A stretch of 64,000 nt of DNA from Sanchytrium tribonematis. Lineage: Eukaryota. Below the pieces are notes generated by a model. The model did not search any database. It saw only the letters and a program-made list of their open reading frames with translations, and was not told the origin of the DNA. This document shows positions 1,170 through 59,392 of this stretch, one piece after another. How positions within the stretch are numbered: the stretch's first letter is position 1; every line of letters starts with the position of its first letter. Both the position numbers and the translations under genes were made by a program. The DNA is taken from positions 1 through 64,000 of the forward strand of contig JADGIG010000006.1 in assembly GCA_018985235.1 (NCBI GenBank), written 5' to 3'.

Positions 1170-2355
1170 ATGTCAAGTGAAATTTCGGATAAGATTAACA
1201 GTGCCAAGAAGGAAGCTGAAGTACTTAAAGAAAAAATCAAACAAAAGAAAGATTCACTAGCAGATACCACACGTATGTTTTCAAGTCTTTGAAATGTAAT
1301 TTGATCTTGTTTACCAAGATCTGAATTTACGCGTTTTACGCTCAATATACATTTCCTCGGCTAATTATTTACTTATTTAGGACAGAGTACTAACGTAGTT
1401 CGAGCAGTTGCAGCTGAGCTTGAAACCCTTCCTAGAATTAGCATGAAAGTTAGAAGAACTCTCAAGGGACACTTAGCTAAAATTTACGCCATGCATTGGG
1501 CATCCGATAAAAGACATCTGGTGAGTGCCTCTCAGGATGGAAAACTTATCGTCTGGGATGCATATACAAGCAACAAAGTGCATGCAATTCCACTTCGAAG
1601 TAGTTGGGTTATGACCTGTGCATATGCTCCATCTGGTAACTTTGTTGCCTGTGGAGGTTTAGATAATATCTGTAGCATTTATAATTTGAAATCGAAAGAA
1701 GGCACTGTCAAAGTATCAAGAGAATTGAGTGCACATACAGGTTACCTTTCCTGTTGTCGATTTTTAAGTGACCGACAAATTTTGACCAGTTCTGGAGATA
1801 TGTCATGTATGTTGTGGGATATTGATGCGGGTCAGAAGGTCACAGAATTTACAGATCATTCTGGGGATGTTATGTCTTTAAGTTTGTCGAATAATAACAA
1901 TGTATTTGTATCTGGTGCCTGTGATGCTACTGCAAAAGTGTGGGACATTAGAGCGGCAAAATGTGTTCAAACTTTTACAGGGCATGAATCAGATATTAAT
2001 GCCGTCAACTTTTTCCCAAATGGTGACGCCTTTGGAACTGGTAGCTTTTTTTCATGTAGGAAGTGATGACGCTAGTTGCCGTCTATTTGATTTGCGAGCA
2101 GATCGAGAATTAAATCAGTATACACATGATAACATCTTATGCGGAATTACATCTGTAGGGTTTTCTGCTTCTGGCAGATTATTATTTGCAGGTTACGATG
2201 ACTTTAATTGCAATGTTTGGGACACGCTTAAAGGCGAACGGGTAGGTGTGTTGGCTGCGCATGACAATCGTGTATCCTGCTTGGGTGTATCTAGTGATGG
2301 TTTGGCTCTTTGTACTGGAAGTTGGGATTCGTTGCTAAAGGTTTGGGCAAACTAG
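1170..2355 (+). CDS. Heterotrimeric G-protein beta subunit; exons 1170-1272, 1399-2040, 2060-2355
   Basis: Spliced product MSSEISDKI...DSLADTTLRAVAAEL...[16 protein letters not shown]...[15 protein letters not shown]...[12 protein letters not shown] is a complete G-beta. Confidence 0.97.
1273..1398 (+). other. 126-nt spliceosomal intron (GTATGT...TACTAACGTAG)
   Basis: Canonical donor, TACTAAC at 1388-1394; removal joins the coiled-coil N-terminus in frame to the WD40 repeats. Confidence 0.9.
2041..2059 (+). other. 19-nt intron gtagctttttttcatgtag
   Basis: Removal restores conserved [14 protein letters not shown] of G-beta. Confidence 0.95.
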
Positions 2356-2449
2356 CAAATAAATTTATGAATCGCAGCTCAAATTCGCATATACTTCAAT
2401 GGTGTATAATAATGCTTCTGGGCCACACTAAACATATAATTTTTCAAAC

Positions 2450-3137
2450 ATGTCTCGAGAATGGTCTCCATATCAAATGAACGGCGGAAATTGTCTTGCA
2501 ATAGCTGGTAAGGACTTTGCTTTAATATGTGCAGACACAAGACAGTCTGTAGGTTTCAATATTTTAAGCCGAGATGAAAAAAAATTGCACAAATTGACTT
2601 CTAAAACAATTGTAGGATGTACCGGAATGCAAGCTGATTCCATTCAACTAACCAGAAATTTAAAACTTCAACTTGAATTATATCAAAGAGATCATAATAA
2701 GGAATGTGAGCCAAAAGGTATCGCACAGTTATTAGCAATTATGTTATACCAAAAAAGATTTTTTCCATATTATGTGTGGAATATAGTAGCTGGTGTTGAC
2801 AAGATTGGTGGAGCTGTTTTCTCATATGATCCAGTTGGCAACTTTGAACGAGTTAGATATGTTGCTAGTGGTAGCGCACAAACATTACTTCAACCTTTTT
2901 TGGATCAACAAATCGGACATAAACACAAATTAGAACCACACCCTGAGGGCAAAATTGTTGACCCGCCATTTGTGTCTAAGGAAACCGCCATTAATGTTGC
3001 CAAGGACGCATTTATCGCTGCAACTGAAAGAGATATTGAAACTGGTGATGGGTATTAATAATTTATTTAGACTGCAGATTCTGATTGTAACAAATGAAGG
3101 TATCGAAGAACTTCATTACGAACTCAAGAAAGATTAA
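2450..3137 (+). CDS. PRE7: 20S proteasome beta-6 subunit (PSMB1-type); exons 2450-3051, 3071-3137
   Basis: WSPYQMNGG start, RFFPYY, FSYDPVG, ERDIETGDGLQI, C-terminal LKKD. Confidence 0.93.
3052..3070 (+). other. 19-nt intron gtattaataatttatttag
   Basis: Removal restores ETGDG|LQILIVT. Confidence 0.95.
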
Positions 3138-4137: not shown

Positions 4138-5290
4138 ATGAATATTTTATACGCACTATTTGGGATACCTCTTTTAATAGAGATATCTCTGGTAGCGTTA
4201 TTTTTCTCTGCTCGTGGGAATTTCGAGATTATGTCACGTTCGATTATTCTAACAGTATTTGGTGGAATTTTCCTGATTCTGTCCCAAATTTCACTTATGT
4301 TGAATTTTTTTGACATCCCATTTTCCAAGTATCCAGCATTATCGTTTTCTATTTGTTTTTCAATCGGATCGACTCTAATTTATTGGAGAAATTTAAGGCT
4401 TAAGATAATTGAGTTCAAATTAGACCCATTATTTTTCCAACCTACTGTTAACAAGATTGAACACACTGGCCTATTTTTCTCTTTAATCTGGAAGCGATTA
4501 TTAGCTTTTTTCATGCTACAAAGTGTTTGGATTCTTGAGATATACCTTTTGGATTATCCTTTTGTATACCAGGGCGCTCAGCTTCTCATATTTGGTTTTA
4601 TGAATATTATTGTGCTGTATCATGTCAGAGTTTCCAAATCAAAAGACAAGATTAAAATTAGGCAAGAATTGTTGGAATTTTTTATTTTTTGTATGTTTAC
4701 TGGAATCTTTGCAACCATCGATGGTGCTTTTATGTTGTCGACTGAACGCAGACTATACAATAGCAGCATTTGGTTTGTGATATTTGTTTTCCCAGTGATA
4801 ATTGGCATTTTGACTCTTAATTCCATTTTTGCTGCTTATCAACATGTTAAATTGGAAAAGTCAATCAAAAACAATTTTGACTGCTTTGCATATGTAATGA
4901 CAAATGAAATACTATATATTGTATTATTCACTAATGTAGATGTTCAAGGAAAGAGTCGCATCGGACCTTTCAGAAGAAAATATCCTATTTTATGAAGCAT
5001 TTCAATCGTGCAGAATTAAATGTGATATGAATCAACTCATAAGTATTTTCGAAATGTTCATTGAAAGAGAAGCCCCATATGAGCTCAATATTAATGAAAG
5101 TATGAGAGAAGATTGTAGAATGAGACTCCAGAAATTAAAGAACGAAAACAAAGTAGATTATCGTATATTTGAAGAAATTGCGATGGAAGTAGAAATACTT
5201 TTGTATCAAAACTCTTTTCCTAGATTTGTAGATACCTGCCGATCATCTGAATTTACATTAAACGGCAGTAGAAAATCATTAAGTAAATAA
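4138..5290 (+). CDS. Multi-pass (about 7TM) membrane protein fused to a C-terminal RGS domain; exons 4138-4920, 4940-5290
   Basis: Hydrophobic helices, then LSEENILFYE, IFEMFI..APYELNI and NSFPRF RGS motifs after splicing. Confidence 0.85.
4921..4939 (+). other. 19-nt intron gtattattcactaatgtag
   Basis: Phase-0 removal fuses the TM region to the RGS domain in frame. Confidence 0.92.
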
Positions 5291-5327: not shown

Positions 5328-6570
5328 ATGGCAAAGCGAATGAAAACGGAAAATAGCCACAAAGAACAATTCGCTTCTATTTATTCCATTACTGAAAATC
5401 CGGAAATTTTACAGACTTCAAACATTTTAATTATTGGCGCAGGTGGACTAGGATCTGAAATATTAAAAAATTTATGCTTTATGGGATTTGAACACATACA
5501 TATTATTGACATGGATACCATAGAATTATCAAATTTAAATAGACAGCTCCTTTTTTGCGAAAATGATATTGGTGCTTTTAAAGCACAAACTGCTGCGAAT
5601 AAAATGATGGAGTGGCAGCCAAATTGTAAAATAACAGCACACAATTGCAAAATAGAAGAAAAGGATCAACTTTTTTATACAAATTTTAATATTATCATCA
5701 GTGGTTTGGATTCCATTAGTGCCAGGCGATGGATGAATGAAGTTATAATGCAGATTTATCAACAACATGATTTAGTCATTCCCTTTATAGACGGTGGGAC
5801 GGAAGGATTTAAAGGACATGTTAGAGTGATTTGTCCTGGACTGACTGGTTGTTTTGAATGTAACATTGATATGTTTCCACCTACAGTCTCTTACCCTGTT
5901 TGTACATTAGCAAATACACCGAGACTTCCCGAACATTGTGTTATGTATGCGCTTAAACATCAATGGATAGAATTAAGGCCAAATGAGACCTTTGACAGTG
6001 ATAACGCAGAGCACGTCGAATGGCTCACAGAAAAATCAAAATCTAGAGCTGAACTATTTGGAATTGAAGGTGTAGATTTGTTTTTTACCTTGGGTGTCGC
6101 CAAAAATATAATACCAGCGATAGCTTCAACAAATGCTATCATAAGTGCAGCTTGTGCCAATGAATGTTTAAAAATAATACTGGGAATGCAAAATGTCGAT
6201 AATTTTACAATGTATAATGGTGAGCAATCAATTTACACGCATACATTTCAAGTGGAAAAGAATGACGACTGTATTGTTTGTAGCATGTTAACGAGGCACT
6301 TTGTTATGTCTCCAGATAATACTTTACAAGATGTATTAGATAAATTAGAAGATTTGTATTTTATTTTTATTTAGAAGATTACAGGCTCCGTCGATTTCTT
6401 GTGAAGGAAACACTTTATATATGCAAGGTCATGCTACTTTGAGGAAAAAGTTGGCTCCAAATCTGTTAAAGAAAATAACTGATTTATCAGCTGAAACAGA
6501 AATTCGATTTACTATCACAGACAAGAGTCTTTCAAAGCCGTCTTTAAGAGTTATTGTATCGTTAGAATAA
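5328..6570 (+). CDS. UBA3: NEDD8-activating enzyme E1 catalytic subunit; exons 5328-6355, 6375-6570
   Basis: GAGGLG, DTIELSNLNRQ, DGGTEGFKGH, CTLANTPRLPEHC, KNIIPAIASTNA; second exon LRLQAPSIS..LYMQ..PNL resembles the E2-binding domain. Confidence 0.95.
6356..6374 (+). other. 19-nt intron gtattttatttttatttag
   Basis: Removal extends the ORF into the C-terminal domain, ending at 6570. Confidence 0.92.
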
Positions 6571-10117: not shown

Positions 10118-12077
10118 ATGGATCCGCTCTATGTATTAAAATTAAAATGTTGTTATCTTGAAGAACTTTTAGAAGAAAAGTATGATGGCCAGCAAGCTGA
10201 TCTATTGAAAGAAATTGCGGACTTAAAAAGTAGACTGAAAACTAAAGGAATTAATACATTAAAATTGGAATTACAAGAATACCTTCCAACAACTGATGAT
10301 GATAATCAATATATTGAATCACTTAAAACTTTGTTGTCAAATAAATCAACTCCTGAGCATAATGAACCAGAGGCTCAGAGACTTAAAGATTTGGATATAG
10401 AACTTAATGAATCTCGAGTATACATAAAAGAGCTGGAATCCATTAAAGCTCAATTTAAAGACGAAAACTATCAATTTGATTCGTTGCAGCAAGAAAAAAA
10501 AGAACTTGAAAGCAAGTACCTTGAATTACTTCAAAACTTTGAAGATCTGCAAATTAATCAAAATGATCCGCCATCTCCACTACTAAATAAGGGTAACGAT
10601 ACCTCAATTCTGATGGATACTTCACTAATAAAATCGCAAGAGATACAGCAAACTACCTTTCTCGACTCAAAATTAAATGAAATTTTGCTCATGATTTTAG
10701 ATTCACTAGAAGAAATGAAGTCACAACAGGGCCAATTTATTTTAGATAGTCTTGATCTAGAGATATCCAATTTGGACAAAGAATCTGAAGAATTTCTTGT
10801 ACTCACTGACATTGCGAAAATACTGAGAGAATTCAACTCGAAATTGTTATCCGAACTATCCGGAAATGAATCAAATCACATAGACAATACTGGAGAGGCT
10901 AGTGATTTACGCTTTGAAATTCAACATCTTAAACAATCCTTGGATGAACTTCAAAATGAAAACAAGAAGCTAAGAGAAGAAATTAACTCGGCTTCAACAA
11001 ATTTGGACTACAAGAGTAGTGATGAATATAAAAATTTGCAAGAGAAAGTAAAAAATTGGAAAATCCAAGTTATGCAAGCTATGAACGAGAAAGAAAAAGT
11101 CAATAGCACTCTGCAAGAGAATCTTGATTTACTTCGTAATGAGTTAAGTGAATGTTCCTCAAAACTAGATTATGAGCAAAACTTGGTCCAAAAGTATAAA
11201 GAAGAAGTAGAATTGCTGTTAACCCAACGAAAGCCCCTTGATGAAAATTTGGAAGAAAATGAAAATTTTTTGAGATGGAAGAAGGATTATGCCCATTTAA
11301 ATGAAGAGAATGTAAAATTGAAAAGTTATAATGAACAAATTAATAGCAGATTGACAGAAGTAATTGATAATGCAGAAAGTTTGAAAAAAAATATGGATAT
11401 GTACGAGCAAGAAATCCGCGATTTACTAGATAAGTTGGAGGTTGTAAAAGAAGAGAAGGAAAATTTGAATGAAATTCTAAGGGCCTTGAGCCTTAAACTG
11501 CAAGCAAGATTGACAGAAGAAGTAGATGATAAAAATATTCTTGAAAAGTACGAATTAATGATAAATGCCACAGAATCGTTTATAAACGAGCTCGAAGTGG
11601 ACAATGTACAACTTCATGATAGGGTCAGACAACTCGAACAACATATTGATATTGAAATTGGAAAAACAGAAGCAGAAAAATTACGCGCAGAAAAATTGGA
11701 AGACTTGCTTCACCAGAAAGAAAAAATTGTACAGGTAGATGTCGCTTATTTAGCTAAACCGAGAGAGCGTTCAAGAGCTTATCCGACTAAAGCAGGTCCA
11801 GTCAAATCAAATCAAACAATTGGCCGAACAGCGAAATATTTTTGGTTCAGACTTACAACTGAAATATGATGAGCTTGCTTTGAAGTATAAAAAGGTTTAT
11901 GAAGAATACCAAAAATTAAAGGACAGGTACAAGCAAAAGGAAAAGTCTGCAAAACGGTCCAGGTCAAAAATTAGAAACGTTCTTGAACATCAAATAATTC
12001 AGCCAAGGTCTCCTAATCAGTACGAGAATGTTATGCTGCAAGAAGCTTTGAAGGACCTGGAAAAAATTAAACAGTAA
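10118..12077 (+). CDS. Long coiled-coil protein of unknown function; exons 10118-11734, 11754-12077
   Basis: E/K/L-rich heptads; the two ORFs join in frame after intron removal. Confidence 0.8.
11735..11753 (+). other. 19-nt intron gtagatgtcgcttatttag
   Basis: Removal gives KIVQ|LNRESVQELIRL, in frame with the 11820-12077 ORF. Confidence 0.88.
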
Positions 12078-12139: not shown

Positions 12140-13263
12140 ATGATTCGTCATTGTATCAAGCGCGGTATGAAAGAATTAAATTTTGGAGGATCTGTTGAAA
12201 AAGTATACGAAAGAGCTGATTATCCACCTGCAAAACTTGCAAAGACACTTGAAAACGATACCTTAGCCATTCTTGGCTATGGTACACAAGGTCGTGGCCA
12301 GGCTCTAAATTTGAGGGACAATCTGAAAAAAATACATGAAGCAGGTGGTAACACCAAGGTTGTACTAGGTTTGAGAAAAGGGTCTTCATGGGATCTTGCG
12401 CTTAAAGACGGCTGGACCCCAAACAAAGATTTACTTGAAGTTGACGATGCTTGCGACAAAAGTACAGTAGTGATGAACTTGTTAAGCGATGCTGGTCAAA
12501 AATCAAGTTGGCCACAAATCAAGAAACATTTAGAGAAAGGAAACAAAACTTTGTATTTTGCTCACGGTTTTTCAGTTGTCTATAAAGACCAAACAAAAGT
12601 TATTCCTCCTAAGAATATCGACGTAATTTTGGTCGCCCCTAAAGGCTCAGGCACTACCGTCCGTAGTTTGTTTCTTGAGGGAAGAGGTATTAATGCTAGT
12701 GTAGCTGTATTTCAAGATGTTAGTGGAAAGGCGTGGGAAAGAGCACTTTCTATCGGAACTGCTGTTGGAGCAGGTTATATGTATGAAACAACTTTTCAGA
12801 AAGAAGTTTACTCCGACTTGACTGGTGAACGTGGAGTGTTAATGGTACATATGATCTGATTTAGGGTGGTATATATGGGCTATTTAAAGCCCAATATGAG
12901 GTTTTAAGAGAGCGAGGACATTCCCCTAGTGAAGCCTTCAATGAAACTGTCGAAGAAGCTACTCAGTCGTTATATCCTTTAATTGGAGCAAACGGAATGG
13001 ACTGGATGTACGACAATTGTTCAACAACCGCTAGACGTGGTGCTCTGGATTGGTACCCAAAGTTTTACGAGGCAAATCTTCCTGTATTCCGCCAATTGTA
13101 CGACGATGTTGTTAATGGTGCCGAAACTAAGAGAACTTTAGATTTCAACTCCCAAAAAGACTACAGAAGTTTGCTTGAAAAGGAGCTCAAAGAGATCAGA
13201 GAACATGAGATGTGGAAAGCTGGCGTACAAGTAAGAAAGTTGAGACCGGAAAATGCTGAATAA
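12140..13263 (+). CDS. ILV5: Ketol-acid reductoisomerase, mitochondrial; exons 12140-12844, 12865-13263
   Basis: GYGTQG, VAPKGSG, EVYSDLTGERGVLMGGIYG, SEAFNETVEEATQSLYP, CSTTARRGALDW, LRPEN. Confidence 0.97.
12845..12864 (+). other. 20-nt intron gtacatatgatctgatttag
   Basis: Removal restores ERGVLM|GGIYGLFKAQY. Confidence 0.95.
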
Positions 13264-13308: not shown

Positions 13309-14579
13309 ATGTCCGCCGATAATCTTTTTCACATATCTCCAGATGCTGATCTCGTGGTACCACTTCTTTCGCCAGGAAGAAATTCTACCTTATCAAGAGA
13401 ACTAAATCGAAATTATTCAACTCAGTCATTTATATCTGAAAATTTTCGTGAGCATTCATCTAGAAAAACAATAGTATTACTTTTGAAATCATTCATAGGC
13501 ACTGGTGTCTTGTTCTTACCAAAATCATTCTACGACGCGGGATTGATTCCAGCTATTTTTTCCATGATATTTACAGCAGCCTTGTCATTTTACGGTGTAA
13601 AAATATTATTGAAATTAACTCTAATAAGCCCAGGAAGCTACTGGCAAATTGCAAATGAAGTGGGTGGGCCAAAAATGAAAAATTTTGTAGTTATAATGCT
13701 GTTTCTACTTCAGTGTGGCCTGGTTATGGCCTACACTTCATTTGTTGCATTTAATTTTACGTCTCTACTTTTCCAATATTTCGATTACAGCATTGATCCT
13801 TTATGGTTTATTATTCTGATAGCAGTTACTATGATACCAGTATGCTTTACTTCCAAACTAAAGAATTTTAGCATAATAGCATCACTTGGAAATATTTTCA
13901 TTCTTGTTACATTGGCAGCAGTGGTTGGGTATTCATTTCGGGAGATAGCAACAACACCCAAGGACATACTGTACTTTGGAAAGTGGAATAACACTTTAAA
14001 ATTTATGGGAACATGTAAATTTATTTTGATTTAGCAGTTTATGCATTTGAAGGTATAGGTCTCATTGTACCATTAGCGCAAACATTAGAAAATAGTCCCT
14101 CTTTTAGCAGAATAATGTATTACACTACTTGTTTCATTCTAACAATGTATCTGGGCTTAGGATTAGTCACGTCAATTGCATTCGGTGATAATGTGAAGCC
14201 AATCATATTTGAAAATTTGATAGGTGAGAGAATTGTAGGATGTTTGGTGTTTTTCTATAATTGTTCCGTGCTAGTTACAATTCCATTAACAATTTTTCCT
14301 GTATTCGAAATTGTGGATGAACTGGCGGAAGATGTAGAAAAAAGTCTCACCGTTTTACTCAAAGTGCTAATATTATCTTTATTATGCACATTTTCTTATA
14401 CGTTTTACGAACATTTGGACTTGTTAGTTTCTCTTTTAGGATCTTTTTGTTGTATCCCGTTGGGAATCATAATCCCAGGCTTGCTAGGGTATCAAATTGA
14501 AAAGAGCATTACAAATAGAATTTTAATTGGATGCGGTGCAGCACTTGTCTTTATGTCATTGGTAGTGCTCTTCGTGTAG
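13309..14579 (+). CDS. Amino acid/auxin permease (AVT3/4, SLC36-like) transporter; exons 13309-14014, 14035-14579
   Basis: LLKSFIGTGVLFLP, FMGTSVYAFEGIG and LVSLLGSFCCIPL motifs. Confidence 0.92.
14015..14034 (+). other. 20-nt intron gtaaatttattttgatttag
   Basis: Removal restores FMGT|SVYAFEGIG. Confidence 0.95.
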
Positions 14580-14604: not shown

Positions 14605-15397
14605 TTAAGTAAAGGATTGCGATATTTTGTTAATTTGTTCCAAACTGCTGCTTTTTTCTGGTGTGGTCGCACCTGACAAAGCATTCAGATCACTTCTGCT
14701 CCTTTTTGGGGCTTGAGTCATGAGTTGAAATGTTGGCTTTGTGTAATTTGCCAATGATTCAACACCCTAAATAAAATTAAAATACGGGTAAGTTGTTGAT
14801 GCAATAATTGATTAATGGTTGATTCAGACCGTAATATTCCATTCCAGATATTGATCTTGGCTTAGAGTTTCGAACGAGACCTGCCTTTGCCGCTACCTGA
14901 CTCCATACAATATTGGTCGTCTTTCCTTCAAAAAAATCTGCACAATCATCTGGTTTAATAATAAAATATGGACTTCCATCTCTTTCTTCAATACTGCACA
15001 AGTATTGTGTTGTACGCAATACGTCGATAGTTGATTGATAAGACCTCTTCACCGTATAGCCTAGTGGAAATATATGCTTTTCATTGTACCACCTGGCATC
15101 ATTTTTTATAGTTCCTATTTTCATTATGGTATACTGTCCCGATTTAAAAGGTGTTAACGGTACACCTTCCCCAGTCATAACGGGAATTTGGTGATGATAA
15201 ACAATTTTCTTATTCCTAGAATTCTTTTTTTGAGGCTTCTTTTCAGCAATTGGAATTGTAGTGATTTCGTGCAAAAGATCGTTACAAGTGTCGCTGACAT
15301 CTGAAAGGTCATCATCAAAATCGGCAAGTCTTTCAAATTGTAGAATTTTGTCTACCGCAGCTTCACGTTCTGCCCAAACGCTTTCCAGAGTTAACAT
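14605..15397 (-). CDS. FYRN/FYRC-domain protein (TBRG1-like); exons 15397-14786, 14766-14605; start uncertain
   Basis: IGTI..WYNEKHIFPLGY..RSYQS..YLCSI, SGMEYYGL..LPGVESLANY. Confidence 0.8.
14767..14785 (-). other. 19-nt intron gtattttaattttatttag
   Basis: Removal restores the FYRC end NNLP|GVESLANY. Confidence 0.92.
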
Positions 15398-15577: not shown

Positions 15578-16118
15578 ATGACTAGGCCACACAAAATGAG
15601 TATTGACTGGAAAACTCTGTATGAACCAACATTTGGTAAGTTTGACTCTAGAAAATTTACTTGTAGATGTGGTGCGACTTTGACCAAGCCTGCAAAGTTT
15701 AATTGTCTGATGCACCTTCAGAATAGTTGTCCTTTGTTAACGCCACAACATTATCTATTAAGTGATTTGGTAAAAAAACTGGTACAATTGACTGTTAATG
15801 ATCCATTAGGATGGAGATATCGAGTAATGCAAGATGGGAGTAATTCTTTCTAATTTAGATGTTAGGTCAAAAAGACTGCCTGCCCACTTAAGTGCAACTA
15901 GTTATGGGTATGCCTGGACATGCTTCACCTGCCAAACCGTGCTGCCTTTGGATCAGAACATGGTCCTTCAACATATTCAAAATTGCGAATCATCATCTTG
16001 CCTAGTCAAAATAAGTTCAGATTGTAGAGGAAATGATGCGGCCTCGTTTGAAGCAGAAGGATTGAAAGCTGTAGACAAACATAGACTAATGGCTTTCATT
16101 ACCGATTTCCATGTATAA
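15578..16118 (+). CDS. Small protein with two Cys/His zinc-binding-like motifs; exons 15578-15839, 15859-16118
   Basis: FTCRCG...HLQNSC and WTCFTC...HIQNC; the two ORFs join via a consensus micro-intron. Confidence 0.65.
15840..15858 (+). other. 19-nt intron gtaattctttctaatttag
   Basis: In-frame junction QDG|NVRSKRL; matches the intron consensus. Confidence 0.85.
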
Positions 16119-20229: not shown

Positions 20230-21691
20230 ATGACAAAAATTGTGCTTCCTGATTTAATTGTTGTGAATGCTATAAATATTGAAGAATTAAAAGATGATAT
20301 CATCAAATGTATTAAAAATAGTAGCTTTGTCTGTGTCAATTTGGTGCATAGTGACAAATCAAATTTCGCACCAAAAGACAATGAGGCTGCCGAGTATGCT
20401 CAAATGAAACGAATTTTACACCAAAGCACTGTGGTTTCTATTGCACTTAGTGTGGGGACATTGCAAGAAACCGAAGAAGGCAGTAGTGTTACACGTGTAA
20501 AGCATTTTCAGATTCAGGTGAATGCTTTCACCGATTCTACTGATCACAATCTCTTTACCACCAGCTATACCATGCAGGGCTACAATGTTAAGGAGGCTCC
20601 GTTTGCCATAAGATACTTTCCAGGAAAGCCAAGAGATCTCGGATTCTCTTTAGGCACTTCAGAAAGATCATTCATATACCCAAAAGCGCACACTTCTTTA
20701 ATGATGATTATGAACTCTATTTTATTGCCTTCAACTACCAGATACTTGTTTGTGTATGAAGGACTCGAGACTCTCATGGGATTTTACAACGCATTTATTA
20801 CTTGTCTGCCTCATAATTCCAAAGAATTTCTAGTTGATTGTGAAGACATATTTAAAAATGTAATTGACGTCTCACTATATTCAAAATTATTACCCTTGCG
20901 AGTTGACTTTCCAATTGTTGATAAAGATTTATTCATATTGGCATTAGAGCATGGGGACTTAAGCAAAATTTATTCAGTTTCAGCAGAAGTCCCCACTCAA
21001 AGTTGGCCTGAATTTACAGACGTCTACGAACAGCAAATCATAGAAAGTAAAAATAAGCCACTTGAAGTGGGAGAACCTACTCAAAATTACTGTACCAAAA
21101 CTCTGGAATGCGGATATTGTGAAAAAGAAGGTTATATTTATTTATCTAGGATCGTGTGAATACAACCATAGCCTTCAAGATCTACTTCTGGTTGAGAAAG
21201 GCAAGGATACAGCCCTTAAGCAGAACAATAAAGGTGCCAGTTGGAAAGTCCCAAAGCGTCTGCGAACTTGGCATATCGCAGGTATTTTAATTTGCTCTTT
21301 AATACCCGTTGTGTTGAATGACAAGGAACGATTTGGGAAAGTGCTTAATACTTTGAGGTGCCCAGGTTTACTTAAAGATTTGGAAATTAAAAAATACGGA
21401 GGCACCCCTATCAGTGTTGAATGGGAGCGCAGAAAAAATGCCTTGACAGGCGAGACTGACCTGATACAAAGATCTCTTCGACCACAAACAGATTTTCGAG
21501 GGAGAACCAGAGGTCGTGGTGGCAGAGGAGCATCTCGCGGCACAAGAGGACGCGGTCGAGGCGGACAACGACGTGGTGGGCATAGAAGCCCGCCAAAATC
21601 TCAAAATCAGGGTCGACGACCAGATCAAAACTATGGAAGAGGTGGTAGATTCACTGCACAGCATTCTACGCCAAGATACCAGCCATATTGA
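20230..21691 (+). CDS. TOE1-like CAF1-family protein with CCCH zinc finger and RGG tail; exons 20230-21130, 21150-21691
   Basis: IKCIKNSSFVCV, SIALSV, FITCLP..EFLVDCEDIF..VID; spliced CTKTLECGYCEKEGSCEYNH fits C-x8-C-x5-C-x3-H. Confidence 0.65.
21131..21149 (+). other. 19-nt intron gttatatttatttatctag
   Basis: Removal builds an exact C-x8-C-x5-C-x3-H finger. Confidence 0.92.
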
Positions 21692-21809: not shown

Positions 21810-23197
21810 ATGAAATTCATACAGGAACAACAGCCATTACAACGAGTTCCGGACTCAAAACGTCATATATTACATGAATTAGTTGAAACAGAAAAATCTT
21901 ATGCGCGTCATTTAACAGTAATGTTAACATATTTTAGGGACAACTTTAAAGAACTTCTCAATACACCGGAACAAGTTGTATCAGCACCCTTTGTAAAAAT
22001 TGTTTTTACAGGTATACCAGAACTCCGTGATTTTGCCCTTAAAGTTGCAGATGATTTAGAAAGGGCGTTCCGTCTATGGGAAATGGATGAAGATGAGTCA
22101 GTGGGTATCATTTTTATCAAAAGAAGGGAAGAATTCACAATATATAAAAAATATGTAGATAACTATGCTATTGCAATGAACCAAATTCGTGATGCTCAGC
22201 GGAAAAATCCAGCTTTCGGAGAGTTTTGCAGCAAGGCCAGAGGATCAAAAGAAACAGATAGACAAGACATAACGGATTACATGATTTTGCCAATACAAAG
22301 AATATTAAGATACAGTTTACTATTAAAAGATTTGAAAAAGAAGACACCTGTGTCACACTTTGACTATAACGATTTGAGTCATGCTTTTGATGAAATGAAT
22401 GAATTGTCGACACAATTAAATGAAGTTAAATTGAAAGAAGAAGAAACAACAAGAATGTTTGAATGTGAAAGAGTTGTTGAAGGATTTCCTCCACAAATCA
22501 TTTCAGCCTCAAGAAGATTGATTATTGAAGGCGATGGAATATCACCTTCGCTCCAAAAGGCAGCGATGCACATTGTGGTATTTTCTGACGTTGTAATGCT
22601 CACGAGAATAAAGCAACAAAGGTCCATGTTTAAATTTAGTAGCTCAACATCCTCGAATAATCTTGATGCTAAAAAGTACAAATTTGAGAAACTTATATAT
22701 ATACAAGACATAACCAAAGTATTATTGGATAGTCAGGATGGTAAATTCATTTTAATTTAGACAAGGTTATTTTAAAGATATTTGGTGTTGGTGACAAGCA
22801 TGATACGAAACGAACTGAAGAAATATTTTGTGATTTGGTACTAGAAAAGGATATAGGATCTCAATTAGAACAAGTTTTGAAGTTGAGATTAAAAGAATAT
22901 AGAAGAGCTTCTGTAGAAAATAAACCACAAGTGGAAATTGTAAAATTAAGCAAATTGAATGGAGGAGACATAATCGACCTTGAAGAAACTTCATCTATTG
23001 AATCAAATAATACAAATACATCGAGTGTCACAGCGTTGGCTGGCTATTTATTTAAATCAAAAAGCAAAAGTCAAGAAAATAAGACTGAGGACCTGGTGTC
23101 GAGGTCGCAATCGCTGCATTCCAATTCCAGAAGCGGTTCGAGGAATAGTACACTTAAGGCAAATGTGATGTCGCCAGCTAGTGCAAAGTCGCAATAA
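21810..23197 (+). CDS. RhoGEF (DH-PH); exons 21810-22740, 22761-23197 (alternative ATG at 21732)
   Basis: ELVETEKSY, ILPIQRILRYSLLLKDLKKKTP, followed by a PH-like region. Confidence 0.92.
22741..22760 (+). other. 20-nt intron gtaaattcattttaatttag
   Basis: Removal joins SQD|DKVILKIF in frame to the 22835-23197 ORF. Confidence 0.88.
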
Positions 23198-33287: not shown

Positions 33288-35070
33288 TTATTCATCTGTG
33301 ACGCAACCTTTGGACGCACTTGACACCGATTTTATAAACTTGTATAGCACACCACTTTTAACTTTATACTCAGGCGCTCTAAATAGCTTGGCCCTTTTTT
33401 TGAGTTCGGCATCTGAAACATTAAAGTTCATTAACCTTTTTTCTGCATCAATTTCCACAATGTCGCCTTCTTTGACTAATGCAATTGGCCCTCCAGTTTG
33501 AGCCTCGGGGCTTACATGTCCAATTATGAATCCGTGTGAGCCACCACTATATTATTCAAAAATACCTAAAACGACCATCTGTTATTAAAGCCACATCTTT
33601 TCCTAATCCTGCCCCCATTATCATAGATGTGGGATTAAGCATTTCTTTCATTCCCGGTCCTCCTTTGGGCCCTTCATAACGAATTATTAATACATCTCCT
33701 TTTTTAATTTGTTTTTCTTCAATTGCAATTAACAGGTCTTCTTCTTTATCAAAACATCTAGCTGGGCCTTTGAAGTAAAGTCCCTCCTTGCCTGTAATTT
33801 TGGCCACACTTCCCTCTGGCGCCAGATTTCCATACAAAATTTGAATATGACCTGTCTTTTTTATAGGTTTGGAAATAGGAAAAATGACTTTCTGACCTTC
33901 ACTTAAAGATGGGACTCGGCTTAAATTTTCAGCCATAGACATTCCAGTGACAGTCAAGCACTCACCGTGTATCCAGCCTTGTTCATATAGATATTTTAAT
34001 ACGGCAGGAACCCCTCCAACTTTATGAAGATCCTCCATCACATATTTTCCACTTGGCTTCATGTCGGCTAAGAAAGGTATCTTATCGCTGATCCTTTGCA
34101 CATCATCCAACGCCAAATCAACATTGGCAGATCTAGCCATTGCAATCAAATGTAGCACCGCATTTGTTGAGCCACCTAAAGCCATAGTCAAAACCAATGC
34201 GTTCTCAAAGCTTTTTTTCGTAAGTATATCCAATGGTTTAATGTCCTTTTCCATCAACATTCTCAAATAAGCACCTACTTGTTTACACTCTTCCATTTTT
34301 TCTTCATCGGTTGCTGGTGTGGAGGATGAGAATGGCAAACTTAATCCCATTGCCTCGATTGCTGAGGACATTGTGTTCGCAGTGTATAACCCACCACAAG
34401 CACCAGCGCCTGGGCAAGCATGTTTCACTATGTCTAATCGTTCCTCTTCTGTTATTTTACCACTAATATATTCCCCATAACTTTGAAATGCTGAAATAAT
34501 ATCGAGTGATTCATTAGGACGACAAGCTGCTTTTCCTGCTTTAATAGTGCCCCCATACACAATGATTGAGGGCCTATTCAGTCTGCAAAGACCGATGAAT
34601 GAGCCAGGCATATTTTTATCACAACCCGGAATTGCAACAAACCCATCATAATATTGCGCACCACCTACCGTCTCAATAGAATCTGCGATAATTTCTCTAC
34701 TAGGTAAGGAGTATGCCATGCCTGGTGTGCCATTACTGATCCCATCACTTACGCCAATAGCATTAAAGCGATATCCTATTAAATTTTGATCCTCTACACC
34801 TTCTTTCACATATGATCCAAGCTCATTTAAATGCATATTACAGGGATTTCCTTCCAGCCACATACTGCATATTCCTATTTGAGCCATATCGAGGTTTTGA
34901 TGCGGCTTTATAGTGCTGTACAATTGAGCCTGACCTGCACCTTGGGATTTTACCTGTGTTATGCGTTTCGAAGTTTTGTTTACTGGCGCGTTCGAATTCG
35001 TTTGCAAATTTTTGGTAAAATATCGGTATAATTGGGAACTACTTTTCCCATGTAAAACAATTGTATTCAT
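33288..35070 (-). CDS. ILV3: Dihydroxy-acid dehydratase, mitochondrial; exons 35070-33566, 33546-33288
   Basis: [56 protein letters not shown]. Confidence 0.98.
33547..33565 (-). other. 19-nt intron gtatttttgaataatatag
   Basis: Removal restores the invariant TDGRF|SGGSHG. Confidence 0.96.
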
Positions 35071-39200: not shown

Positions 39201-40176
39201 CAAGGTACCATCGTTGTCATGGTTGTCAAAGGTAACGTGGCTTTAAGTCCTTCCATTCATGATGCCTGTAAATCTATCGGCAGTGTATTTGTTCATCAAA
39301 TAATGGAAGGAGATGGTTGGTGTATGATTGGAGAAAAAGGTGCCACACCTGGAACTGTAGCTGAAGGTTATCAACAAAGTGGCTCGACGCCGAAAATATC
39401 GAGACTTTTCGATAATATACATGGAGACGGAGTTATATATCCAAAAAATAGCATAATGACTAGTGGTCCAAGTCATGGTACAATTAATTTATTTAGGTAA
39501 ATGGTTAAGAAAAAGAAAAAATGATGGTGCACTTAATCGAGTGCCATTGAATTTTTATCCAAAAGTATATTATGTTTTGGAAAGATGTGAAGGATTGCAA
39601 ATAGAAAATCAAGTACTTCCTAGAAATCCAACGGTGAGTGAGAAGACAGCTCAAGAATTAAACTTTGCTTATCAAGTGGAAGCATTTTTAGATAAGACTA
39701 CTAGAGATCCTGCAGAGAGACAAATAATTGTTGAAATTTTGGTTGTTTTGTACAATATCTTTATCGGACAATCTGATGTTGGTGTAATGGAAACTCACTT
39801 TAGCAAAAATATTCATGTCACAAAGGAAAAGAAAATCAGAAATGACGAAATAATCGATGTTTCTAACATCCTTCATCGAGCATTATCAAATTACTGGAAC
39901 GATTGGATTACGAAAAGAACAAACTCGATCCAGAAGCATCACTTTGTTGAAGACACAAGCAGTAGTCCAACTGATTTGTCTGAGACAAACTTGAAAACCA
40001 CCTCTTCTTCCAAGAGCCTGCAAATGAGTATGGAAAGTGAGGTTGAAATTCCAAATCATTCAGATTTTCTAGGTTTTGAAGGAAATATTGGGCATGCAAA
40101 GAGATTATTTTATGACCTTCAAAGACACGGCAAAGTGGGTACTTTAAATTACATCCATAAGTGTGTGAAGTTGTAA
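36207..40176 (+). CDS. Phosphorylase b kinase regulatory alpha/beta-like subunit (GH15-like); exons 36207-39477, 39497-40176
   Basis: TGLLPAS, DAWVRDNVY, WGHLQIDA, PDYGIWERG, LPRES.SKEIDA, RFLRDG, GKWLRKRKNDGALNRVP. Confidence 0.92.
39478..39496 (+). other. 19-nt intron gtacaattaatttatttag
   Basis: Removal gives PSH|GKWLRKRKNDGALNRVP. Confidence 0.93.
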
Positions 40177-52375: not shown

Positions 52376-52866
<491 letters not shown>

Positions 52867-54817: not shown

Positions 54818-54830
54818 AATAAAGATTTAA

Positions 54831-55419
54831 TTACAATTCTTCTTTTCTCATTTCACGTCGTTTTAATTCTCTTTCAACGAATCGATCTTTCATGTCATCA
54901 TAACGTTCAGAAACTCTTTCCTTGACACGATCTTCCATTCCTTTCAATTGGTCGTCTAATTTTGTCATCATATCAGGTGTGATTGTTTTCTTTTGAACTG
55001 GTTTTTCTGGTCCTTCACCTCGATTGTACTTTGCATATCGATCAATTCCTAAATAAGTTAAAAATACCGCTCATGTCTTCGTACAAGCGGTGGAACATAT
55101 CGTGTGCCATACCTGTTGCAAAATCACTCATGTATTCATCAAATTGACGACGAGTGTCAGGATGGTCAAAATCGATTTCAGTGTCACTGACTTGTCTCTT
55201 TTTCTTTGGCTCTCTTTTAACAATTCTTGGGTCGGCTTCAGGTCCCATTTGGTCGAAACTTCGCTTATGTAAATAATTTAAATGATCCTCAACGGATTTC
55301 ATTGATCTTTCGTATAAACGCTTATATTTAGGGTGAACTGTAGGATCGTCCATGACTTCCCGCTTCTGAATGTGTCCTGGTCTAGCAAAAATCAAAGTTA
55401 ACAAAATTAATTGAAGCAT
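54831..55419 (-). CDS. Secretory-pathway protein with signal peptide and C-terminal KEEL; exons 55419-55068, 55048-54831
   Basis: MLQLILLTLIFA signal; spliced product ends RREMRKEEL*. Confidence 0.75.
55049..55067 (-). other. 19-nt intron gtatttttaacttatttag
   Basis: Removal opens a 218-nt last exon ending in KEEL*. Confidence 0.9.
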
Positions 55420-55651
55420 TTGTAACAAATAAGCGACGAAAAGTCTTTTTATTTAATGGCGTCTGTGACGTCACCGTTTTTCTTTAGAAGCCTTGCCTAA
55501 CATAAGACGATCTTTAAATACAGAGGTTGGAACATCGAAAACTTCAAGCTCGGCCATTTATAGATCACAAAAATTGACCAAGGCTTGAAATAAGTCTAAA
55601 TTAATTATTGCAAACACGATTTTTTCATAAAAAGACTTTTTATTGCGAGTA

Positions 55652-56264
55652 TTATTCTTTTCCAGCCCAGTCTTTCTTAATAGCAAAGCACCACTCAAAA
55701 TCAAGATGGGTGACTTGATCGTCATCAATAAAACTAAATGAGTTTGATTTACCGAGATCGGACGTTGTATGTACCACGCGCTAGAGCTCCACTAGGTGCC
55801 TCTTCTGGTTGAAATTTCTTTTCATAAGGAGTTGGGTTTGGCCCGTAGCTTCCAAGCATTTCCTCTGCCTTATCAACTTTTATTCCATTACGCTTGACAA
55901 CATGAAGGTATTTGAGTCCGGAAACGACATCGTTTTGGACCTGGAACTTAATTTTGAGCTTGTATTCAATGCCTTCTTTGATAATCATAGGGTTCTTTTT
56001 ATATTCTTCCAATTTGGTGGTATCTTGCAAATTTAAAACGACATCAGATCGCTCGGCAACTTCCATAGCTAATTCTAGCGGAATAACTTTTTTGCCTCCT
56101 TTTGGAACAGCACCAGTGGCCACACCAAGGCTTTCTTTCCACTTTCTCAAACTCTCATCCTCAGCGTCAAGATTTTGAAGTTCTTCTAGAGTCTTTTTGG
56201 CTGGTGCCTTGTAGTTAACGTCATTGGTTACAGCTAGATCATCGTCCTGAGGTTGAGTAGACAT
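55652..56264 (-). CDS. RDI1: Rho GDP-dissociation inhibitor; exons 56264-55753, 55733-55652
   Basis: LDAEDESLRKWKESL, IKEG.EY, MLGSYGP, EEAPSG.LARG.Y, FIDDD..THL.FEW...IKKDW. Confidence 0.97.
55734..55752 (-). other. 19-nt intron gtaaatcaaactcatttag
   Basis: Removal restores VRSR|FIDDD. Confidence 0.96.
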
Positions 56265-56304: not shown

Positions 56305-57648
56305 TTATTTCAAATTTATTTTGGGCTTTGGTGTCAATTGCAAATATGTTTGCCAGTCATCCTCATCACCTATCTCAATAACATCTGTGCCATCTATATA
56401 ACTCATTTTTATGGATTTTAAATTCAATTTTGTAGTAATTTTTAATTGGGCTTCCTTGTAGGTGTTGTTATTTAATAGCATCACAAAAACTTTTCCAGAA
56501 AAGTCAAATTTTGCCGGACTGGCAACTGGTTCGGCAACTTGCTCGTCACTTCCCTTGTTTTCGTCAATAGAACCCTTCCTTTCCTTTGGGGCTAACTTTT
56601 GGGGCTTGTTCTGGAAAGTTGTGGGGGCCTTGAGCTCATTGGGGTCTTCTTTTTTCTTTTCTCTTGGTTTGTCGGTCTTCTCTTTACTATCTGCTTCTTT
56701 AGGCTTCTCTTTCGCCTCTTTGTTCACTTCCTTTGTATCTTTTGGTACGTTTCGTTTGCCTTTCATAGGTTCACTGACTGCAACTCCACTACCGACTTTC
56801 ATTTGGTTCCATGGTGCAACAATTTCTGCGGCACTCATTCCTTCTTTCACTTGATATTTTTTATTGTACACAGTGTCAATTTCCCAATTCTGAAAAAAGT
56901 TTTGAATCAATTGACTGTTAAGAATGTGTTCGGGTAATTGAGCAAAAATTTCCTTGCAATAAACTGCTAGCTGAGCAGCTCTTCGCTGCGTAACATTCTC
57001 ATTGGCAAATGGAACGGGTCCGGGAATGGTAGGTATCACTCTTGTTCCAGAAATTCCGCTCTCTTGTGGAAATGTCGCTAAAAGTGTAAGCTGCATGTCA
57101 TAAAAGTCTTGATATGTCCTGTAAATTATTCTATGGATGTGATCTTTTGAATCTGTCTCAATGAGAAAAGTCCAAACATTTCCTTTTCCTTTAAAATATT
57201 GAACCACAATGGCGAATGTTATATTTGCTGCTGTTGGAGTTGCGCATTCCTTGAGATAGGTAGTTTTTTGCGTTGGTTCGAGTCTCTTCAAAGTCCCATA
57301 AGGTTTTAGGGTTCCACGAGATGTATTCTCTGCTGCTGTGAATCTTGAAAGTGTCATTTTTGGTCGCTCTATCTTGGCAACTTTTGGTTTTATTTCTTTT
57401 TCATTTTGTTTGTCTGCTACTTGATTTGTCTTAACTGGTAATTCAAGTGGTTTTAATGCCTTTTTGATTTCCAGGTAGTTGCTGGGCACATATCCTTCTT
57501 TTCCCTTATACTTTACCAGAGTCCAGTCTGTACTCCCTTTCACAACCTCTACTTCTTCACCCTCTTTGATTGCTAAAGCTTGCAGACCATTTTCGAAGTC
57601 ATATTTTTCAGTACCAGGATCAAAATCAAATTGTAGCTTCACGTGCAT
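56305..57648 (-). CDS. SH3-PX-PB1 scaffold (Bem1/Scd2-like architecture with one SH3)
   Basis: SH3 DW...KEGYVPSNYL; PX RTYQDFYDMQ..L..FP.E.G..R.IP.IPGP; PB1 MSYIDG.DVIEIGDEDDW. Confidence 0.85.
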   Translation of the reverse strand: MHVKLQFDFDPGTEKYDFENGLQALAIKEGEEVEVVKGSTDWTLVKYKGKEGYVPSNYLEIKKALKPLELPVKTNQVADKQNEKEIKPKVAKIERPKMTLSRFTAAENTSRGTLKPYGTLKRLEPTQKTTYLKECATPTAANITFAIVVQYFKGKGNVWTFLIETDSKDHIHRIIYRTYQDFYDMQLTLLATFPQESGISGTRVIPTIPGPVPFANENVTQRRAAQLAVYCKEIFAQLPEHILNSQLIQNFFQNWEIDTVYNKKYQVKEGMSAAEIVAPWNQMKVGSGVAVSEPMKGKRNVPKDTKEVNKEAKEKPKEADSKEKTDKPREKKKEDPNELKAPTTFQNKPQKLAPKERKGSIDENKGSDEQVAEPVASPAKFDFSGKVFVMLLNNNTYKEAQLKITTKLNLKSIKMSYIDGTDVIEIGDEDDWQTYLQLTPKPKINLK

Positions 57649-57942
57649 CTTAAAAATTTATTTTTACCCATTTTTACAATTTATTACCAAAACAAAGCAA
57701 CTACATTGACTCATGCTTGTATTATCGCATTTAAATTTATTTGATTCAGTTGATTGACGTCAAAATGTTTAACGAAGTTGATTTGGATGATTGTCACGAA
57801 TAGATATTGAAGCTCAATTGTTCTTATGGTGTTAGCTATTTCCGATACTTTTGGTAATTGAATAACAAAAAGTTATTAATATATTTGCTTGCCCAGACTT
57901 TCGATTGGTTTTTATTCAAAACGCGCCACTTTTAAATTTTCA

Positions 57943-59392
57943 ATGGATGACGAAAAGAAAGACTTAAAAATTCAAATCCCTGCCAACAAGGATTTGAAGT
58001 CATCTGTAGAAAGAAAAATACCAGAAGACCTTAAAACAGATACTTTTGTAGCAATTGTAGGGCAACCTTTGCCTCAAGCAGGAAGTACAAGTCCAAAACC
58101 TTTAATTGTTAACGCAGAAGACAATCCGGCTTTAATTAAACCGCCAGACCAAGACCCTGAAGGCGCAAGTCCGGGATACCATGAAAGAAAAGTTATGGAT
58201 GTACTTGATGGAAATAATGAAGACCCTTTCACTTTAGATTCGTTCAAAGAATTAATATTAAATCACGCGGATCAAGAGAAAGATTATATTTTAGCCAGAG
58301 TTATTACGATGGATCCAAAAGACAACACACGTTTTTATTATTCCTATTATCCTGGGCATAATATTAATAAGGTTCTATTTAGAACCCAACCTGAAGAAGG
58401 GCTATTACATAGAATGAAAGCCAAAAATCCGCTTAATAATATGACTATTGTGGGTGATGTATTTTACTACGCTATATCTTGTAAGCAGTCGGAGAAAGTT
58501 AAACGAAAAGATAAAAGTAACGATGCGTCTCCAGAGTCTATTAAATCTCCAAGAACGATACAGAGAAACGCTATGAGTGCTAAATTAAAAATAATATTGG
58601 AGCAGTCACCAAAATCAACCTATTTAGTGACACGTCCAGACATGCATGAGAACGAGCCATTAAAAACTCGAAGACCTAGTGCAGATGACGTATTTTCTTA
58701 CACCAAGACTGCGCCAAATTTATCGCCTTCGAAATTATTTCACAACTCTGAATTTTGGCAAGGCTGGCAAAATAATTTAAGAGCCCAAAAAATAGAATTA
58801 GAGACTCTGAGTGCTGGAACTGAATTGGATGTATCCGCTTCATTATTGTCTCCCAAGCAAGTTAGTTATTTAAATGATCGACAGAGTGTTTCCATAAATG
58901 ACTGGATATCGAACCATACAACCTCCAAAGAAAAAGTATTCCTCATTTATTTAGTCTCCAACCATCTTCTATGCACATTATATTGGCAGCGACGATGACT
59001 TTTTAATGAAATCTAACTTTAGACAATTCTTTAAGAAAAACGCATTGACAGATGAAGAGGCTGTTCTATTCTCTCTACCAACAAACTCACTTTACCCTTC
59101 TACACCAAATCCGCAGGACCAACTCCCCCCAAATGACGACCAGTCGCGCCTCAAAATGGTAAGATATGTTCTAGGTAGTTATCTGATGGTTATAATCTTA
59201 GTCTTGGGTGCATTTTTGTTTTCCTCAAAGGACCGTGACACAAACAACGATCAATTTAAAACAATGATCATTGTGAGTGGCGTGTTATTGAGTGTAGTTA
59301 TAGGTATACTTGTAGCATATGAAATATATATTAGAAGACGTGGTAGAGCTGGTAGCGAACCACTGAATTCTAATGCAGACCATGAAGAATAA
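57943..59392 (+). CDS. Conserved hypothetical membrane protein (DUF5092-like); exons 57943-58935, 58955-59392
   Basis: EDPFTL, ARVIT.D...YYSYY, GLLHRMKAKNPLNNM.IVGDV.YY, YIGSDDDFL; two C-terminal TMs. Family name is recalled, not verified. Confidence 0.7.
58936..58954 (+). other. 19-nt intron gtattcctcatttatttag
   Basis: Removal joins SKEK|SPTIFYAHY in frame to the 59006-59392 ORF. Confidence 0.9.

Follow-up and report, generated by a model that had tools for sequence, protein, structure and literature searches.

Can the 18 short insertions that interrupt genes along this DNA be introns of an ordinary spliceosome, and how would sequences so small be recognised? In the window, by which we mean the whole stretch of 64,000 nt analysed, every insert starts with GT and ends with AG on the strand of its gene (Table 1), at the coordinates given in the original prediction. 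Fifteen are 19 nt long and three are 20 nt, with 13 counted on the plus strand and five on the minus strand. Their removal leaves an open frame on both sides in 18 of 18 cases, as had also been proposed, and at five of the junctions the joined product aligns without gaps to homologues or profiles. The proteasome site is shared with relatives, seven sites show continuity at the level of the domain, and the remaining 5 of 18 combine frame and motif only. When the genes are read unspliced, a stop codon falls within the insert in 10 of 18 cases and 7-44 codons further on in the other eight; no insert length is a multiple of three, and every retained form hits a stop within 44 codons. Of the roughly 52 genes in the window, 17 carry an insert, and 16 of 18 inserts lie in the 3′ half of their gene. 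At the density of this single window, 18 per 64 kb, a genome of 11 Mb would contain roughly 3,000 micro-introns. The first intron of the UBC4-type gene is the only one clearly located in a 5′ half. One gene assignment had to be corrected: the proteasome gene at 3052 is of the beta-6/PRE7/PSMB1 type. A protein search found no clear sanchytrid orthologue spanning the junction of the DUF5092 gene.

Table 1. Introns of the window and the gene used for placement.
Feature	Position	Strand	Phase	Remarks
126-nt canonical intron, G-protein beta	1273..1398	+	1	codon 34/35; GTATGT, TACTAAC two bases before AG
19-nt micro-intron, G-protein beta	2041..2059	+	1	gap-free vs homologues; site implied in relative P0374
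19-nt micro-intron, proteasome beta-6/PRE7-type subunit	3052..3070	+	2	site implied in P0378, P0379, P0380
19-nt micro-intron, RGS-domain gene	4921..4939	+	0	domain-level continuity only
19-nt micro-intron, ThiF plus E2-binding (Uba3-like) gene	6356..6374	+	2	domain-level only
19-nt micro-intron, unannotated 646-codon gene	11735..11753	+	0	frame and motif only
20-nt micro-intron, ketol-acid reductoisomerase (KARI)	12845..12864	+	0	gap-free, profile 1-17 then 18-143
20-nt micro-intron, amino-acid transporter	14015..14034	+	1	domain-level only
19-nt micro-intron, FYRN/FYRC gene	14767..14785	-	0	domain-level only
19-nt micro-intron, unannotated gene	15840..15858	+	1	frame and motif only
19-nt micro-intron, CAF1-family nuclease gene	21131..21149	+	1	sole GTT donor; frame and motif only
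20-nt micro-intron, RhoGEF gene	22741..22760	+	1	frame and motif only
HSP90 gene, intronless, used for organism placement	30916..33051	-
19-nt micro-intron, dihydroxy-acid dehydratase ILV3	33547..33565	-	2	gap-free vs 119/119 homologues
19-nt micro-intron, phosphorylase-kinase regulatory subunit-like gene	39478..39496	+	1	domain-level only
19-nt micro-intron, UBC4-type E2, second intron	52422..52440	-	2	domain-level only
19-nt micro-intron, UBC4-type E2, first intron	52725..52743	-	0	gap-free, profile 1-35 then 36-129
19-nt micro-intron, unannotated gene	55049..55067	-	1	frame and motif only
19-nt micro-intron, Rho GDP-dissociation inhibitor RDI1	55734..55752	-	2	gap-free vs profiles (6-171 then 173-193; RhoGDI chain 23-179 then 181-203)
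19-nt micro-intron, DUF5092 gene	58936..58954	+	0	domain-level only

The length of the inserts was assessed by motif counts. A loose motif (GTA...TTTAG) occurred 13 times at a length of 19, seven times at 20 and 0-5 times at any other length from 12 to 60. A strict motif gave 14 matches at 19 nt, four at 20 nt and none at 18 or 21 nt, against a mean of 0.62 and a maximum of 4 at the other lengths from 12 to 200; this count is partly circular, because the strict motif was derived from the 18 inserts themselves. All 14 of its 19-mers and three of its four 20-mers are inserts of the original set, while the fourth 20-mer, antisense inside an open frame, was not counted as an intron. Motif matches at 10583, 42562, 53638, 55312 and 45937 were attributed to chance, being antisense in open frames, as was the match at 45763, whose excision would disrupt a frame of 607 codons. 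Predictions of an ad hoc coding-score gene finder were set aside, as it was overfitted and found only 2 of the 18 known inserts. In this one window, the length of the inserts is thus confined to two adjacent values below 21 nt, as in tiny fixed-length systems.

The intronless HSP90 gene places the host in Sanchytriomycota, beside Amoeboradix gromovi (88% identity; clade support 100/100 in a 41-row, single-gene tree), and ILV3 is 80% identical to that of the same species. The fungal lineage originally proposed is therefore a true one, that of the alga-parasitising sanchytrids. Two ENA proteasome proteins continue for four residues after Gly-Tyr and then stop; among the lengths of 14-33 tried, only a 19-nt intron fits. 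Their tails are compatible with T at -8, A at -6, T at -5 and T at -3, the reading ending at the stop, before the next exon. The Amoeboradix proteasome protein fits a 20-nt intron, and five of the five following residues match the next exon when re-framed, while an ENA G-beta fragment fits a 19-nt intron at the 2041 site; all these lengths are deduced from the tails of public proteins and not from DNA. Micro-intron sites common to sanchytrids are hence those of the proteasome gene (three relatives) and of the G-beta gene (one relative), whereas the ILV3 micro-intron is absent from four close relatives. The trait itself is probably older than the divergence from Amoeboradix, individual micro-introns having been gained or lost since. 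These proteins also bear on the idea that the inserts arose as errors of assembly or amplification, or that the genes are decayed pseudogenes, to which we give almost no credence. The contigs of the sole sequencing run with this DNA carry, at depths of 134-774 and without gaps, all 15 inserts examined out of 18. This run may be the source of the assembly, in which case it is not independent, but in four proteins taken from other data sets the break falls at identical codons, with different intron-like tails, and errors would not share a motif invariant at four columns.

That motif is the signature GTA...YTNATNTAG, in which T at -8, A at -6, T at -5 and T at -3 are each found in 18 of 18 inserts, A at +3 in 17 of 18 and a pyrimidine at -9 in 16 of 18. 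GC content is 0.12 inside the inserts versus 0.36 for the window, the exon base at -1 is G at 12 of 18 junctions, and donor positions +4 to +8 vary and are rich in A/T. The inserts hence possess a branch-type motif whose conserved A lies close to the 3′ end, as is characteristic of U2-type introns, and the A at -6 is likely to be the branch point. Minor (U12-type) introns have a long and invariant consensus, with donor RTATCCTT and branch TCCTTAAC; set against it, the variable donor positions speak against this class.

The same window contains a 126-nt intron overlooked by the original prediction, in the G-beta gene, with textbook donor and branch sequences (Table 1). Its putative branch A also stands at -6, and the spacing from branch A to AG is identical to that of the micro-introns. 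The site of this long intron recurs in all 10 other genomic copies of G-beta that were splice-aligned, and the 2041 micro-intron is absent from the same 10 copies; these loci, some of them near-duplicates, were picked from 80 metagenome matches because their match span suggested introns. The 80 loci were retrieved with the G-beta protein P0123 (best match 88%), and none is on a sanchytrid genomic contig. P0123 itself is 96% identical to the G-beta of the window and forms a single 345-codon frame on a 1068-base contig from which both introns are missing, which fits a spliced transcript but could instead reflect an intronless gene. Judged by homologue spacing, a micro-type 3′ motif inside the 126-nt intron, 18 bases before its end, is passed over. 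An alternative acceptor giving a 108-nt intron was rejected, as it adds six residues not present in homologues. Querying PDB with the short first exon of G-beta returned chance matches only.

The long intron modifies two of the initial claims. Intron length is fixed at 19-20 nt among the 18 inserts but not throughout the window, and the host departs from the tiny fixed-length systems of the Stentor, Mikrocytos and nucleomorph type in that not every intron of its genome is tiny. An independently evolved splicing system had also been proposed: independence from nucleomorphs and ciliates is suggested by the phylogeny, but a GTATGT/TACTAAC intron at an ancient site with the same branch-to-AG spacing speaks against a separate system and points to an ordinary U2 spliceosome handling two intron classes. 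We infer from the sequence that the 18 inserts are, with high probability, introns removed by such a spliceosome. Removal by a non-spliceosomal route (a dedicated nuclease-ligase, or DNA excision in another life stage) or translational bypass might account for the fixed length and small size, and no spliceosomal RNA was found in the window with Rfam at either threshold, though 64 kb need not hold one; ARAGORN likewise found no tRNA in the window. This route is very unlikely in view of the GT-AG ends, the branch-type YTNAT, the G at exon position -1, the spacing shared with the 126-nt intron, the lack of any hairpin or inverted-repeat fold in the 18 inserts, and the absence of a joined form at all 15 insert sites examined in the DNA run. 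BRR2 and cactin are annotated in A. gromovi (supplement of PMC8371127).

Under U2-type splicing, the A at -6 would serve as branch point, with T at -8, the pyrimidine at -9 and T at -5 pairing with the GUAGUA motif of U2. The 3′ splice site would then be defined, in both classes, by a short invariable distance from the branch A, without a pyrimidine tract. In micro-introns, what remains would be GTA at the donor and YTNAT at the branch site, the lost specificity likely coming from the close spacing of donor and branch A (position 14 or 15), while the long intron would need the full GTATGT and TACTAAC signals; that weak signals would suffice only at 19-20 nt is proposed from the contrast with one long intron. 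Excision would yield a lariat loop of 14-15 bases with a 5-base tail. The element fixed in both intron classes is the distance from branch A to AG; that total intron length is measured is plausible.

Splicing of such introns need not be efficient. In Encephalitozoon cuniculi, 30 of 37 short introns are spliced at less than 50% (PMC3629993), whereas the single long intron is spliced well (PMC3629993, PMC6349667), so that the sanchytrid inserts may be heavily retained as well. The window likewise combines short introns with a long one, and the frame-breaking lengths noted above would suit real introns that are mostly retained, inefficient splicing of late micro-introns acting as a dial or as tolerated noise, as in microsporidia. 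Against this, retention would cut the proteasome subunit, the E2, G-beta and ILV3 short inside conserved domains, and the four invariant non-terminal columns suggest strong selection for removal. The proteasome subunit, the E2 and G-beta are encoded by genes that should be needed intact. We regard predominant retention as improbable and keep U2-type removal as the preferred reading.

The origin of the micro-introns was considered separately. Copies of a mobile element (introner) or local tandem duplications could explain why one micro-intron is absent from four close relatives (ILV3) and another from the 10 splice-aligned G-beta copies, and the even phases (6:7:5 for phases 0, 1 and 2) are expected of new insertions. 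Absence is equally well explained by loss, however, and two sites are common across sanchytrids. Nor do the inserts resemble the alike copies, with terminal repeats or target-site duplications, of introners: there are no identical pairs, positions 4-10 are just 43% alike, flanking exons show no excess of likeness (permutation p 0.12 and 0.08), and an inverted-repeat fold is absent. Such an origin is therefore unlikely.

Among known systems, the introns of Stentor coeruleus (PMC9505925) similarly start with GUA, are AU-rich, have two adjacent lengths and place a putative branch A six bases from the end, leaving a 5-nt tail; they differ in belonging to a ciliate, in measuring 15-16 nt, in lacking a strong branch consensus where the sanchytrid set has invariant T at -8, A at -6 and T at -5, and in being 5′-biased within genes where the sanchytrid micro-introns are 3′-biased, and in the sanchytrid a long canonical intron coexists. 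Those of the Bigelowiella natans nucleomorph (median 19 nt, SD 0.57, donor largely GT(A), AT-rich) come from a relict endosymbiont nucleus rather than a main nucleus and are reported without a branch-point signature such as the sanchytrid set has (PMC2483917). Mikrocytos mackini is also a parasite whose nuclear introns have two adjacent lengths and a conserved sequence, but it is a rhizarian with shorter introns (16-17 nt), none of which is described in metabolic or transporter genes, whereas the sanchytrid has them in ILV3, KARI and an amino-acid transporter gene (PMC10245619). In Yarrowia lipolytica the branch motif lies two bases before AG (A at -6) without a pyrimidine tract, and this fused branch-point/acceptor matches the sanchytrid 126-nt intron exactly; its introns are long (median 204), with a strong ACTAAC and no micro class described (PMC2483917). 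Microsporidia, fungal relatives with compact genomes, combine tiny introns with rare long ones bearing stronger signals; E. cuniculi introns, however, span 22-76 nt, have strict donor and branch motifs, total about 37 and are often 5′-biased (PMC3629993, PMC6349667), as opposed to 18 in 64 kb, of 19-20 nt, with weak donors and a 3′ bias. The ultra-short introns of myxobolids and Dicyema, parasites as well, share the donor GTa and the lack of a pyrimidine tract but have medians of 22-27 nt, and their conserved A drifts from AG as length grows (5′ anchored; PMC13644364), whereas the sanchytrid A stays at -6 in introns of 19, 20 and 126 nt (3′ anchored).

No earlier description of sanchytrid micro-introns was found in the literature searched. 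At 19-20 nt they would be shorter than any in the literature found for fungi or animals, lying below the floor of 22 nt given for E. cuniculi (PMC3629993) and below the median of 22 nt cited as the record for animals (PMC13644364). A practical cost is that public sanchytrid proteins are truncated at micro-introns: as anticipated for annotation, the read-through open frames stand unaltered in the public protein collection in 9 of 9 cases looked up. The published sanchytrid proteomes derive from an ORF finder that is blind to introns (PMC8371127), so that protein counts and some claims of gene loss or domain content may need rechecking.

A true fungus thus joins the few lineages with a spliceosome that seems to process introns no longer than 20 bases. 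One gene with a micro-intron and a long canonical intron of the same branch geometry offers a built-in control for studying the minimal lariat and weighing distance against signal strength, and the 3′ bias and patchy presence in relatives make intron gain versus loss testable. A literature search on 3′-biased intron position found nothing. We offer only tentatively, as a possibility we rather doubt, that sanchytrid introns are the shortest in any fungus or animal and form a distinct, still-turning-over class, born de novo in the last 700 coding bases, with distance instead of sequence as the basis of recognition; of the ancient introns, only rare long ones with complete signals would persist. 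If so, the accumulation of micro-introns towards the 3′ end, the reverse of the pattern in yeast and Stentor, would suggest that micro-intron recognition is coupled to transcript 3′-end formation or selected via the costs of retention.

All 18 GT-AG inserts lie where the original prediction had placed them, on the gene strand (13 plus, 5 minus), and with each one excised the frame is open both before and after the junction, as it had claimed. When retained, 10/18 carry a stop codon within the insert, and for the other 8 a stop follows 7-44 codons downstream. A loose motif (GTA...TTTAG) was matched in the window by 13 segments of 19 nt and 7 of 20 nt, and by 0-5 of each other length from 12 to 60. 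A strict motif, whose length count is partly circular because it was built from the same 18 inserts, had 14 matches of 19 nt and 4 of 20 nt; lengths 18 and 21 had none, and the mean over the remaining lengths up to 200 was 0.62. The 15 inserts examined of the 18 were all present without gaps in contigs of X1, one public DNA run that is possibly the source of the window assembly. Among the 18 we found no folding, no mutual copies and no likeness to the flanks. Five junctions are gap-free against independent references (see table), seven further inserts show domain-level continuity across the junction, one is backed by relatives, and for five the support consists of frame and motif. Three further micro-intron-like matches fall outside the reading-frame test because they are intergenic; they are possible UTR introns.

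Coordinates of inserts and other features of the window (inserts by start)
Position (strand)	Length	Feature	Observation
1273-1398	126 nt	long G-beta intron	donor GTATGT; TACTAAC two bases ahead of AG
1362-1380 (+)		perfect micro-type 3' motif in long intron	18 bases upstream of true acceptor, in frame with it; no GT 19-20 bases upstream
2041		G-beta insert	anchor spacing as in window in 92/111 full-length homologues, remaining 19 without anchor match
3052		proteasome beta-6/PRE7-type insert, the one backed by relatives	
12845		KARI insert	Pfam positions 17 to 18, gap-free
33547		ILV3 insert	motif continues identically in 119/119 homologues
52725		UBC4 first insert	Pfam positions 35 to 36, gap-free
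55734		RDI1 insert	Pfam positions 171 to 173, one codon split; RhoGDI chains align 23-179 then 181-203
11735, 15840, 21131, 22741, 55049		inserts	frame and motif
28475-28493 (+)	19 nt	intergenic match	
49456-49472 (+)	17 nt	intergenic match	
55596-55615 (-)	20 nt	intergenic match	
18762-18846 (-)	85 nt	non-coding stretch	GTAAGT to TAATTTAG
49191-49275 (-)	85 nt	non-coding stretch	GTAAGT to TAATTTAG
27000-28500; 53830-54830	1-1.5 kb	no long open frame in otherwise packed window	no Rfam match
30916-35070		HSP90 and ILV3	adjoining
43416	4 bases	absent from X1 contig, inside RRP36-like frame	either strain difference or assembly error
52684-53507	824 bases	about four times neighbour depth in X1 (774 vs 134-179)	one 59-base X1 contig matches both ends; no direct repeat of at least 18 bases; either amplification artefact or local multi-copy segment

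The 3' end of the micro-introns is much more fixed than the donor side, where GTA (17/18) is followed by variable A/T; inner GC is 0.12. Counting back from the intron 3' end, positions -8 (T), -6 (A), -5 (T) and -3 (T) are the same in 18/18, and -9 is a pyrimidine in 16/18. The resulting YTNAT appears to be a weak version of the TACTAAC branch motif, with a putative branch A at -6. In the standard U2 branch helix, -9, -8 and -5 are U2-pairing positions. Conservation of GUAGUA in U2 is described in the accessible text of PMC13685798. The original prediction overlooked the long intron of the G-beta gene, so that its fixed length of 19-20 nt holds for the 18 inserts but not for this one. Because TACTAAC stands two bases before its AG, the branch A would also be at -6, and since both classes share this position, the branch-to-AG count would be general in the window's introns; Yarrowia has the same count (PMC2483917, accessible text). 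The 126-nt spacing was found in 58 of the 61 G-beta homologues matching both anchors, and that of an alternative acceptor at the upstream micro-type motif in 0/61; this motif could be a minor alternative acceptor adding six residues. All ten other genomic G-beta copies that were splice-aligned (10/80 loci, inferred to be fungal-type, introns of 48-167 nt) share the long-intron site and none has the 19-nt site. The two 85-nt stretches, neither of which convincingly connects two coding frames, could be UTR introns, non-coding-RNA introns or chance occurrences.

Weak signals are associated with the micro class. The inserts are a real feature; excision, branch use and a distance rule are inferred. 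They would most likely be removed by the U2 spliceosome through a fused branch-acceptor, where U2 pairs at YTNAT and the AG is taken four and five bases beyond the branch A. The donor would be whichever GTA makes this A the 14th or 15th base of the intron, a short fixed span thus standing in for sequence information; the 126-nt intron, which could not use the short span, has full signals. We consider this mechanism highly probable as a whole, the intron nature of the inserts being more certain still and the distance rule less so.

Phylogeny of HSP90, proposed in the original prediction for placing the organism, led to a fungal lineage. The window's HSP90 shares 88% identity with its Amoeboradix gromovi counterpart, and in this single-gene tree of 41 rows it groups with A. 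gromovi and one ENA protein (100/100), branching outside that pair, which places the window in Sanchytriomycota. These are algal parasites with genomes of 10.5-11.2 Mb and about 35% GC (PMC8371127, accessible text). The same paper predicted its proteins by running TransDecoder on contigs. Since public proteins were called without regard to introns, they were translated into them and keep a trace of them: all nine read-through frames looked up are present as such in the public collection, and a tenth gave a 100% match. In two ENA proteasome proteins the chain stops four residues past Gly-Tyr. Of the lengths 14-33, a 19-nt phase-2 intron alone accounts for these tails, its own TAG serving as stop; the final two residues are Leu/Phe then Met/Ile, as from YTN and ATN. 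For the A. gromovi proteasome protein, the tail agrees with 20 nt and the signature, the re-framed next exon matching 5/5 residues; 28 nt was formally possible too but did not match the signature. An ENA fragment of G-beta (97% identity) agrees with 19 nt at the same site as in the window. A G-beta from JGI, with 96% identity to the spliced protein, consists of a single 345-codon frame on a 1068-base contig, without even the intron of the ancient 126-nt site; taken most simply, this contig would represent a spliced transcript. Conservation of micro-introns among sanchytrids is not uniform. In 4/4 close relatives ILV3 forms one unbroken frame of 585 residues, so its intron was gained in the window's lineage or lost in the relatives. 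One relative's ILV3 is on the same-named contig as A. gromovi HSP90, and the HSP90-ILV3 gene order is apparently conserved because these orthologues bear one contig name.

The window is very compact, with about 52 gene spans covering 55.8 of 64 kb, many gaps below 50 bases and some overlapping frames; KARI, the acetolactate synthase small subunit and ILV3, three branched-chain amino-acid genes, lie inside 23 kb. This gene span holds 19 introns, and 17 of the genes bear micro-introns. With the first ATG of each open frame used as gene start, a choice that slightly favours this result, 16/18 micro-introns are found in the 3' half of their coding sequences (binomial p 7e-4) and one more at 0.50. 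All lie 43-677 bases from the stop codon, a zone comprising 59% of coding bases (p 8e-5), and a position-blind motif scan yielded no additional strict 19-mers. In contrast, introns are 5'-biased in Stentor and yeast (PMC9505925, accessible text). Possible explanations are coupling to 3'-end formation, a milder cost of retention and intron loss skewed towards the 5' side.

Tiny introns as a kind are not new, since they are already known, in the accessible texts, from Stentor (15-16 nt, PMC9505925), Mikrocytos (16-17 nt, PMC10245619) and the Bigelowiella nucleomorph (median 19 nt, PMC2483917). For fungi and animals, the same kind of source puts E. cuniculi introns at 22-76 nt (PMC3629993), two in Rozella at about 30 nt and the record median for animals at 22 nt (PMC13644364). 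No description of sanchytrid introns was found in the literature searched, which covered material outside subscription journals. In the accessible text of the sanchytrid genome paper (PMC8371127) the word "intron" is confined to the reference list, with one unrelated match among its searchable supplements, and in a later sanchytrid paper (PMC10459994) it is confined to the references. The feature is thus apparently undescribed: probable tiny introns of fixed length in a fungus, distinguished by a 3' positional bias, a 3'-anchored branch and a coexisting long class.
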